DNA from: a virus
Length of the DNA stretch: 64,000 bases
IMG/VR virus record: IMGVR_UViG_3300032132_000001
Location: 106,573 to 170,572 of that record
Direction: 5' to 3' (one strand)
The position numbers and the translations under genes are program-made. The notes under the pieces were generated by a model. The model saw only the letters and a program-made list of their open reading frames with translations, had not been told where the DNA came from and ran no database searches. Of this stretch, positions 57,220 to 62,156 are shown piece after piece (the stretch's first letter is position 1; each line of letters opens with the position of its first letter).

Positions 57220-59805
57220 TTAGACTCTTTCAAGGGGGATGCAAATGGTGTTTTTCCGGAGATTGAAACTCCGATACTTTTCATTCCAATTAACTTTCAT
57301 TCGGAGACCAATGCCTGGGTCGAACACCTCGTCCCCATTATTTTGCCAGGCATCGCTCCACACCATGACTTTGGCGCTCTCCACTCCGTCAGTCACGATC
57401 AGTTGGAGGAAAGTAGAGCTGGCCCCTTGACGCTCCTCTCTTTCCTCAATCACCACTTCTAAGGTCTCATGAGACCTAGCATAGTTAATAGAACATCCAT
57501 CATGCTTGAATTGATCTAACGGTGAGTTCCAATAGAACCCTAGGAAACTTTTCTCGAATTCTAAGATCTCAGTGAGAGTATAATCAAACTCAAACAACTG
57601 CATCACATGCTTGGACTGGATGACGACTTTGTTTGAAGTCTTGTACTCTTCTGCTGCTTCATCGTCCAATCTGAGCTGAGACAGGTCCTTTGCTACTTTG
57701 TCCCAGAAACCTTCATCGCCTGGGCTGCGCCGTTCCAGAATGGTAGTCTCTTTGCCCACTTTCTCAACGAACAAGACTGCATTCTCTAACACATTGAATC
57801 GAGGTTTGTCGATTGGTAGTGTGGGGACCCAGTTGGTGATCTTTACTGGTACCTTCGTCCTGTTCGGGTATTCTTTGCGCCATGCGCGCTCTTTCCGCAG
57901 CCGCTCTTCTTGGATCTCTTCGTTGGTCCAGCAATAACAGCACCGAATCAGCCGTCTCAGGGCTGTCATGTAGGTGCCAGACCCGTGCTTGTATAGGTAC
58001 CACATCCACAAGGCTTTCTTGTTGTCGTGCTTGGCTCGGAAACCACCAAGCTTGATCAGCCGTTCAAGTACCGTTTTGCTTTTGCCGTGTCTCTCTACGA
58101 AGTGGTCCAAGCTGTCGTACGGACCCTTCCCGGAGAACTCTTTTGCTGCGCTTTCTCCGATGCCCTTCACGCCCATCAGACCGGGAGTGACGTGATCACC
58201 GAGAACTGTGAATTTAGTGGTCAGCTTGTCACAGTGCATATCTGTGAACTCTACGCCCTCTGCACGCGCCACACTCATATACCGCTTCAGCTTTTCTGAG
58301 TGACAGTCGGACATCACTGCTGCCCACCACTCTGCTGGGAAGTGTGCCTTCAACCAGATGCAGCGATAAGCGATGGTAATGTAAGCGCTCACGTGGCTGA
58401 CGTTGAAGGCGTAGCGACCGAAGGTGACCATCTTCTCCCACCATTCTTTGGCGCTCTCTTCTCCAAGCGTTTTGGATGCTCCGCGCAGCCACTTCTCTTC
58501 GATTGGTACTAGTTTCTCAACCCACTTTTTGGCGACTGCTTTCCTGGCTGCTTCTGCCTCGGGCGCTGTGAAACCCGCGAGCTTCCGCCAGATAGTAGCA
58601 AGCTGCTCTTGATAGACGATTACCCCGTACGTGTCTCCCAAGATGTCGATGATTCGCTCATCTTCACCGTCCATCCACTTGCTTTCGTCGATTCGCTCAC
58701 CGGTCTCACCATCTACTCTCACCTTGCCGTCCCGGCGCGCGATGTACACGTCTACCATGGGTAGTGGGCCAGGGCGACCGAGAGCTGAATAAACGACGAG
58801 GTCCTTGAATTCCTTTACCCCGCCTTTCTGGATGATCGACTTAGATAGTTCAGTCTCGAACTGGAAGATAGAGTCTACCTGCACTCGATCAGCTGACTGG
58901 ATGGCTTTCTCATCGTTGAACAAGATGGGGTGGTCGCCCTTCTCATCTTTCTGCCATCCAGCACGATCTACGTCTGGGTCCATGTCTTCCCAGTCGATTT
59001 CGATGCCCCGGTTCTCTTTGATGAGGTTACAAGCTGTCCAGATGTACAGGAGATTCTTCAAGCCGAGGAAGTCGAACTTGATAAACCCAAACTTAGACAG
59101 CTGTGTATTACGACCTTCTGTCCAGGCGGAGGTCCAGACATCGTTACTCATAGTGAGCGGAAGGTGGTCCCGCACTGGGACGCTGGAGATGATCAGACCG
59201 CCAGCATGTCTCAGCTGGGTCTTGATCATGCCCTTCATCCGATAGGCGATATCTACTAGATCTTTATTATCTTCATAGAATTTCTTGAAAGCCTCAAACT
59301 CATCCAAGGCTTGTTTCAGCGTCAGATCATCAAACGCCTGAGGCAGCTCTCTCGTCAGAGCTATTGACTTATGTCTATCATAGCCGAGAGCAGGAGCAGC
59401 ATCTTGCAACGCCAATTTCGGGCCATAAGTCTGCCAAGCCCCGACTGCACATACTTTATCAGCACCATATTGCTGAATCGCGAATTCCCGGACAGGCCCG
59501 CGCGCATGGGGGAGAAAGTCAATATCGATGTCCGGGAAGTCAGGCTGATACTGAATGTTATGCTCTATACCTTCAGCTATTGGGTCTATCCTAGTGATGC
59601 CCAGCAACCAAGGGAGAACCAGCCCGTTGTCGTTGTGATCGAAGGTCTTCTCTGCATTGAGTAGTTCTACCCAATAATCAGATGCACCTTGCTTGTTTAT
59701 TTCTTTGAATTCGAATAATAGACGGTCTTTATATTCCCCGTCTAGCTTCCTTTTGAGAAGCTCTTGTGCAGCTCTCTTCTGCACATCTGCCCACTCTATG
59801 CTCAT
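57220..59805 (-). CDS. dnaE: DNA polymerase III alpha (DnaE-type) C-terminal fragment: catalytic palm/fingers onward
   Basis: PDFPDIDIDF catalytic Asp motif. GFIKFDFLGLKNL ~ E. coli LVKFDFLGLRTL. RPGPLPMVD ~ RPGPLQSGMVD. Confidence 0.75.
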   Translation of the reverse strand: MSIEWADVQKRAAQELLKRKLDGEYKDRLLFEFKEINKQGASDYWVELLNAEKTFDHNDNGLVLPWLLGITRIDPIAEGIEHNIQYQPDFPDIDIDFLPHARGPVREFAIQQYGADKVCAVGAWQTYGPKLALQDAAPALGYDRHKSIALTRELPQAFDDLTLKQALDEFEAFKKFYEDNKDLVDIAYRMKGMIKTQLRHAGGLIISSVPVRDHLPLTMSNDVWTSAWTEGRNTQLSKFGFIKFDFLGLKNLLYIWTACNLIKENRGIEIDWEDMDPDVDRAGWQKDEKGDHPILFNDEKAIQSADRVQVDSIFQFETELSKSIIQKGGVKEFKDLVVYSALGRPGPLPMVDVYIARRDGKVRVDGETGERIDESKWMDGEDERIIDILGDTYGVIVYQEQLATIWRKLAGFTAPEAEAARKAVAKKWVEKLVPIEEKWLRGASKTLGEESAKEWWEKMVTFGRYAFNVSHVSAYITIAYRCIWLKAHFPAEWWAAVMSDCHSEKLKRYMSVARAEGVEFTDMHCDKLTTKFTVLGDHVTPGLMGVKGIGESAAKEFSGKGPYDSLDHFVERHGKSKTVLERLIKLGGFRAKHDNKKALWMWYLYKHGSGTYMTALRRLIRCCYCWTNEEIQEERLRKERAWRKEYPNRTKVPVKITNWVPTLPIDKPRFNVLENAVLFVEKVGKETTILERRSPGDEGFWDKVAKDLSQLRLDDEAAEEYKTSNKVVIQSKHVMQLFEFDYTLTEILEFEKSFLGFYWNSPLDQFKHDGCSINYARSHETLEVVIEEREERQGASSTFLQLIVTDGVESAKVMVWSDAWQNNGDEVFDPGIGLRMKVNWNEKYRSFNLRKNTICIPLERV

Positions 59806-60669: not shown

Positions 60670-62156
60670 ATCGTCACCTGTAACATGTTTCCGCCACGGC
60701 TGGGTGACAGGAAGCGGTCAAAGCTCAACCCCCACTTCAGCGGATCCATGTCGTGGATCCCGAGCGCGAAGCACACCACGCTCCCGCCTGCGCTGCCCCG
60801 AGCAGGACCAATAGGCCAACCTGAATCGCGGGAGAATTTCACCAGCTCTTCTGTGATCAAGAAGTATGAAGCGAACCCCTTGTCAATGAACCGCTTTAGT
60901 TCGATCTCTGTCTGCTCTAAGTGGGTTACCATTCGGTTGTCGATTTCGTACTTCTTCTCTGAGTTTAGAATACCTCTCCACTCTAGACCTTTCATTGTCT
61001 GCGCTCGCAGACGTTCATTGGCGTCTGCGATTTCAGGAAGCTTTGGGTCTAGGTCAGGATCGAATGTCTGACACATCCCTGCGACCATCAGAGTGTTTTC
61101 ACAGCTTGTTTCGAAGTCTGTCAATGTCGAATGCTGATCATACCCACCCTCTAGGTAGGTCTGTCTGAGTTGTGCTCGCGTCTTCATGAACTGGTTGTCA
61201 GAGTTGACGTGAAAAAGCTGGTCTTCCCATCCGTCCTTGCTCAAGTCCACACCCTGAGAGATCGCCATCATTGTCAGCTGAAGCTGGAAGTCGCGACGTT
61301 CCAAATAGTGTACATCGTTCGTGAGGACGCTTGGAATCTTCCGCTTCTTACTCATCCTATTCAGATGCCAGAAGATCTGTTGCTGGTTGGGGATGTCTGG
61401 GCCTGGCATCTGGAGTTCGATGAAGTAATGGTCGCCGAAGATCTCTCGGAAACGATCTACTAACGCATTCGCGTTGTGCCAGAATTCCTTGATTTTAGCT
61501 GGCTTCTTGTCCCTTATTGATTCTTCCATTCTCCAGAATTCATGTGCCACTGGACCGTTGAGGCAACCGGAAAGGACAATTAGACCTTCCCGATGCTCAT
61601 CCAACTTGTCCAGCCAGATCCTGGGCTTGTTGATGAAAGTATGCTGCCAAGCCTGGGATGTCAGCTGAATCAGGTTCTTATATCCGACCATATCCTTGGC
61701 AAGCACTGTGAGGTGCCGGTTGCGCCTGAATCTTGCTGCGAGGTCGGGCTCTTCTTCTTTGAAGGCTTGCAGTTTGTCTGGTAGCTCTACCGTTTCTCCA
61801 CCGCGCAGGTACGGATGTGGCAGGACTACCGGTTCTCCAGCGCGTCTCGCTTCATTCGCGTGATAGTAATCGCAGTAGTAGATCTCACAGCCTGGTATGA
61901 ACTTGATATCATGAGCCTTTGCGGCCCAGTATGCATCGGGAAAAGAAGAAAGCTGGCCGTGGTCCGTAATAGCCATGGCCGGCATCTCAAACTCTGCACA
62001 CCGTTCGAAGAGCGCATCGGGAGTCGCGACACCATCGAGCGGACTGAAAATGGTATGCAAATGGAGATGTGCGAAACCGGTTGGACCTGGATATTGTTCA
62101 GCTGCTTTCGCAGCTTCGGTTTTGGCTATGCTTTCGGTCATCGTAGGTCCTAACAA
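60666..62156 (-). CDS. dnaE: DNA polymerase III alpha (DnaE-type) N-terminal fragment: PHP domain to just before the catalytic aspartates
   Basis: [13 protein letters not shown] PHP motif. C-terminus [38 protein letters not shown] ~ E. coli [38 protein letters not shown]. Confidence 0.75.
   Translation of the reverse strand: [496 protein letters not shown]

Follow-up and report, generated by a model that had tools for sequence, protein, structure and literature searches.

Bacteria replicate their DNA with C-family polymerases, and these enzymes are usually studied with alpha as one chain. In the 64,000-nt stretch of viral DNA analyzed here (the window), a DnaE-type polymerase of this family is divided between two open reading frames with two other genes lying between them, and a part of its palm is encoded twice. 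The question is whether this locus represents a broken gene, the trace of a recent insertion, or a replicase that operates in pieces. A combination of domain profiles, family alignments and related metagenomic loci, described below, indicates that the arrangement is conserved and working, neither a broken gene nor a recent insertion. We consider it likely that the genes N, S, R and C form a conserved four-gene operon in a clade of large, uncultured phages, with contigs reaching ~400 kb, and that these phages encode their DnaE-type (C-family) replicase as separate subunits, which would have originated through an ancient partial duplication followed by fission.

Organization of the locus

A preliminary description of the window had placed four ORFs here, and all four (N, S, R and C) are present at those coordinates; they and every feature located below are on the minus strand. 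N (60666..62156) comprises 496 aa when read from the TTG at 62156 and 491 aa from the ATG at 62141 (gene caller, public data). Pfam assigns to it a PHP domain (PF02811, E 6e-38), which extends over 61257..62078 (aa ~27–300), and positions 5–98 of DNA_pol3_alpha (E 8e-24); the N tail (60669..61031, aa 376–496) is a canonical-looking copy of the duplicated palm subdomain. S (60175..60669) encodes 164 aa, and its GTG start overlaps the N stop as GTGA. R (59802..60218), a 138-aa homologue of RNase HI, has a GGAGG Shine-Dalgarno sequence upstream of its ATG and a stop that overlaps the C start as ATGA. The four ORFs are translationally coupled.

C (57220..59805, 861 aa) opens with the C head (59536..59805, aa 1–90), in which the duplicated subdomain recurs in diverged form; the palm strands with the catalytic residues come next, then thumb, fingers, HhH and, at the C-terminus, a region with an OB-like pattern. 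It aligns to Taq alpha residues 429–952 and matches DNA_pol3_alpha positions 8–260 (PF07733, E 4e-31), the finger domain (PF17657) and HHH_6 (PF14579), while its OB domain is inferred from a sequence pattern only, with no Pfam call in the window protein. All DnaE domains are represented by N and C, 0.86 kb apart in one operon, with the thumb, fingers and HhH (beta-binding) domains all in C. Immediately upstream of where N starts, a G+C-rich hairpin of 12 bp (62163..62190) may mark the boundary of the operon or belong to a 5' leader.

Partition of the catalytic motifs

As had been noted before, N stops just short of the catalytic Asp strand, and the translations place PDIDIDF at aa 91–97 of C. 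The PDIDID strand (59518..59535) contains two catalytic aspartates, D94 and D96, which we take to be the equivalents of E. coli D401 and D403, and the KFD motif (59071..59079, C aa 243–245) contributes K243 and the third catalytic aspartate, D245; P91, D92, D94, D96, K243 and D245 are invariant among 81 sequences. N retains the Gly-Ser (GS) nucleotide-binding loop GPxRGSxxGS (60780..60809 by translation) together with the Arg of the FxRFLxPxR helix; an alignment of 26 family sequences shows no variation at P451, R453, G454, S455, G457, G458 or S459 of the loop. In place of the missing Asp strand, the C-terminus of N carries a conserved SRGG-x-ML-x-V-x-M (GGxMLxVxM). C, for its part, retains DxD and K-x-D, has N-x-NG in place of the GS loop and no longer has the FERFL-NPER (Arg) helix. 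All canonical DnaEs used for comparison (Pfam DNA_pol3_alpha, Taq alpha, LR756511) conserve both the GS loop and the Arg helix; here, these are found only in N (aa 450–487) and DxD with K243/D245 only in C, leaving no single-chain palm. The active site is probably composite, shared by N and C.

The nine PHP metal ligands of N (H30, H32, D41, H66, E91, H148, C198, D281 and H283) are all invariant in the same 26-sequence family alignment. This set comprises 5 His, 3 Asp/Glu and 1 Cys, the composition found in M. tuberculosis DnaE1, whose PHP exonuclease is active (PMC5636811).

A proposed ancient duplication within the palm

Since N matches DNA_pol3_alpha positions 5–98 and C positions 8–260, the two overlap by ~90 positions, corresponding to phrog_405 positions 349–439, to E. 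coli alpha ~313–396 and to a length of ~270 nt. The earlier estimate of ~70 residues encoded twice was thus right as to the duplication and too small as to its size, which domain profiles put at ~90 profile positions. BLASTP between the two copies gave no significant match (E 0.66), and a profile-profile comparison by hhalign related them at E 7e-6 over 95 columns with 22% identity, with a 5-residue deletion in the C copy at the GS loop. An identity of only ~22% argues for an ancient duplication event.

The contrast drawn previously between a well conserved copy in N and a degenerate one in C applies only when canonical DnaE is the yardstick; compared with its own family members, the C copy shows good conservation. 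The N tail (aa 419–496), with a mean column identity of 0.67, is the most conserved part of N (0.46 for PHP), and the C head (0.49) is close to the fingers (0.51), against a range of 0.46–0.54 for PHP, palm/thumb and fingers. These values indicate that purifying selection is acting on both copies of the overlap. The C head is also confidently modeled by AF2 (pLDDT 89–98 over residues 1–80), and its residues Q39 and N58 are invariant.

In the proposed scenario, the ancient partial duplication, of the same gene or from a second dnaE, would have placed the ~90-residue N-palm subdomain on both sides of a fission point located inside the palm, between its nucleotide-binding half (GS loop, Arg helix) and its metal-binding strand (DxD), and the two copies would then have lost complementary motifs. 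N would supply an active PHP proofreading exonuclease and, most likely, the triphosphate-binding loop, with the metal ligands, thumb, fingers, HhH and OB provided by C.

A different division of labor, which we regard as rather unlikely, would make C a self-sufficient polymerase using N-x-NG in place of the GS loop and N a separate PHP proofreading subunit, whose palm-like tail only anchors it to C or to S/R. The confident fold and conservation of the C head, including Q39 and N58, its covalent linkage to the Asp strand and the intact PHP ligands of N are all in keeping with such an arrangement, as is the conserved pseudo-strand ending N, which could complete a mini-domain of its own, so that the N copy of the subdomain may be self-contained. 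Against it, the C head has neither the GS loop nor the Arg helix common to the canonical enzymes, and the N tail keeps the canonical DnaE residues (GPxRGSxxGS, FxRFLxPxR); a tail serving only for docking should have drifted, like the C head, so the strong conservation of the tail argues for more than anchoring.

Conservation of the split across relatives

The locus was compared with 46 related IMG/VR loci that include the end of N as well as the start of C, at 37–53% identity. All 46 are split and an uninterrupted dnaE occurs in none; the N-to-C gap ranges from 426 to 2858 nt and holds 0–6 ORFs of at least 60 aa. In L054, a distant relative, the polymerase is split at the same point and N directly adjoins C, with no genes between them; a search for further relatives of this type returned L054 only. 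The stand-alone N family is represented by 658 matches with E<1e-10, and of the best 120 of these, 115 are 408–547 aa long, the other five (649–838 aa) containing in-frame inserts that resemble inteins. Among the best 120 members of the C family, none has a PHP domain.

A nucleotide search with 57000–62400 against GenBank phages gave no match, and a protein search with the C head yielded only a marginal match to a Brevibacillus phage, which indicates that the clade is not among deposited phage records. Two other candidates for a split DnaE were set aside: MT835750 ('Bacteriophage sp.') encodes an ordinary full-length DnaE, and in Staphylococcus phage MVC_VPHSA2 the two CDS overlap and lie at a position unrelated to this split.

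The intervening genes

The preliminary description had placed between the halves a 164-aa ORF and an RNase-H-fold ORF with substituted catalytic Asp positions, and both hold up in the families built for S and R from IMG/VR loci. S looks helical, as judged from its sequence, and the motifs E-x-KHS, KWPD and YP-x-I are conserved in it. No relatives of S were found in Pfam, PHROG or PDB (including a profile search against PDB/Pfam), and phmmer against 1.84 billion representative proteins gave 4 matches only. The R family profile matches E. coli RNase HI in PDB (E 8e-7, residues 20–142), from which R is predicted to have the RNase H fold; the R protein of the window alone scores 24.5 bits against Pfam RNase_H, just under the 25.8 cut-off, its single-sequence AF2 model has a pLDDT of 37, and a large protein search by word index, with R as the query, recovered no sequence other than R. 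The family has no invariant column in 30 sequences; the equivalents of D10, D70 and D134 vary, and R is accordingly predicted to be catalytically inactive, with the E48 position frequently acidic. This RNase HI-like R and the apparently helical S would, like the diverged head of C, serve as structural or assembly elements of the replicase.

Of the 46 related loci, 34 have S and 36 have R in the interval from N to C, and both genes are absent beside unsplit DnaEs. No transposase, integrase or homing-endonuclease domain was detected in either by Pfam or PHROG. This pattern indicates that S and R are conserved clade-specific genes and not genes of a mobile element.

The same observations bear on the cause first proposed for the split, insertion of a mobile two-gene cassette with target-site duplication, taken here as a recent event in a previously intact dnaE. 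Two genes between the halves and one segment on both sides are what such an event would produce, but the explanation is very improbable given copies so diverged that BLASTP is blind to their relation, the lack of mobility domains, the synteny of S and R in relatives as distant as 37–53% identity, the cassette-free split of L054 and the absence of any base-composition step at the ORF borders. What stands of the earlier proposal of a two-subunit enzyme is its separate polypeptides; its origin by cassette insertion does not.

Inteins, introns and the integrity of the gene

The junction between N and C was said to lack an intein, and this is borne out by the absence of any Pfam match to a Hint, intein or endonuclease domain; there is no Cys/Ser at +1 and no His-Asn, and C starts with MSIEWADV. 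Rfam intron and ribozyme models gave no match down to E=1 in 56500–62800 and none at gathering score in the whole window, and nothing was found with Rfam in nine relatives with extra breaks. With neither an intein nor an intron at the junction, the fragments must assemble non-covalently, which would result in a multi-subunit replicase.

A decaying pseudogene (the alternative previously offered), or halves rejoined via an intron, an intein or recoding, could appeal to the interruption of the gene and to the inteins and split inteins that relatives bear at other sites, yet is extremely improbable: none of the intron, intein or endonuclease signatures listed above is present, joined halves would contain the subdomain as a tandem repeat, two conserved protein-coding genes stand in between, and the fragments, both kept in 46/46 loci, are conserved in hundreds of metagenomic proteins, with a pseudogene excluded by copies of the overlap that are under purifying selection and as conserved as the catalytic core.

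Inteins are typically located in functionally critical motifs. In relatives such as L040, L043 and L046, a split intein is positioned exactly inside the GS motif of the N tail, whose Ser forms the +1 residue, and L050 has the same break. Beta-rich extensions of separately encoded C heads in relatives gave no Hint or other Pfam match. Across relatives, inteins and split inteins are concentrated at this locus, and they may find use in protein engineering.

Implications

Overall, in a large and apparently undescribed clade of huge phages the alpha subunit is split in the catalytic palm, with two complementary diverged copies of the nucleotide-binding subdomain. On the favored reading, a replicase encoded as separate subunits after duplication and fission, this would provide a natural experiment in how a Pol-beta-fold active site may be divided and reassembled, a route by which a PHP proofreader becomes a separate subunit, and an example of the course of gene fission through duplication and degeneration in an essential enzyme. 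The locus also adds two new replicase-tied accessory families (S and the inactive RNase HI-like R) and a rule for annotation, namely that 'partial DnaE' ORFs of jumbo-phage bins should not be equated with pseudogenes or assembly errors.

A tentative extension of this reading, possible in our judgment though not the expected outcome, is an interlocking heterodimer, in which the helix, GS loop and Arg helix of N would pack on the Asp strand of C to form the single live site, and the dead head of C would pack on the N pseudo-strand GGxMLxVxM to form an inactive pseudo-palm lobe. Such an assembly would be reciprocally swapped and pseudo-symmetric, with R and S as dedicated assembly or clamp-like subunits. 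If true, it would represent a Pol-beta-fold active site built from two chains, with a detachable PHP proofreader held on the polymerase, and a natural, clade-wide case of an essential replicase site shared by polypeptides after duplication and complementary degeneration.

Comparison with known systems

Canonical DnaE1-type Pol III alpha subunits (Thermus aquaticus, M. tuberculosis DnaE1) share with N and C both the set of domains and its sequence, which runs from PHP with nine ligands through palm, thumb, fingers and HhH to an OB-like pattern. PDB matches to canonical Pol III alpha range from E 1e-40 to 1e-65, and the catalytic Asp triad, GS loop and Arg helix are all present in the phage set. 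The phage version differs in its distribution over two chains cut inside the palm, the ~90-residue duplication, the separation of the GS loop and Arg helix from DxD, and the presence of S and R in between. R itself resembles E. coli RNase HI in sequence homology and in the often retained E48-equivalent position, and departs from it at the equivalents of D10, D70 and D134.

Literature searches for this architecture returned only papers on split-intein DnaE and the different split of Iyer et al. (PMC7824862). The cyanobacterial split-intein DnaE and the 'fractured genes' with split inteins (PMC2677866) likewise have dnaE in two pieces, and relatives of the phage studied here have true split inteins, which differ in appearance from the fragment ends seen here. 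The N–C junction in the window lies elsewhere than the cyanobacterial site and has no intein halves, so that protein splicing cannot join the pieces. The 'genes in pieces' of T4-like phages, such as Aeh1 nrdA, interrupted by mobE, and the divided gene 43 of Aeromonas phages (PMC3045599, PMC2988022), are comparable in that an essential phage enzyme of replication or nucleotide metabolism is broken in a critical region and consists of two non-covalently reassembling polypeptides. Those splits go with either an untranslated spacer or the gene of a homing endonuclease and are confined to a few phages, whereas here the split is clade-wide and the genes in between are conserved and non-mobile, and NrdA reassembles via novel tails where the present clade has a duplicated domain.

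In group 2.2 jumbo phages, a 'minimal' Pol III alpha is predicted to be split between NTP-binding and Mg2+/template-binding subdomains (Iyer et al., 2021, PMC7824862). That version consists of the core nucleotidyltransferase module only, with no PHP or other domains, is encoded by two genes far apart and accompanies a family B polymerase, and neither a duplicated subdomain nor intervening S/R genes are described for it (PMC7824862). Nevertheless, judged by which chain keeps the functional motifs, and comparing by published description (PMC7824862), the boundary is the same in both.

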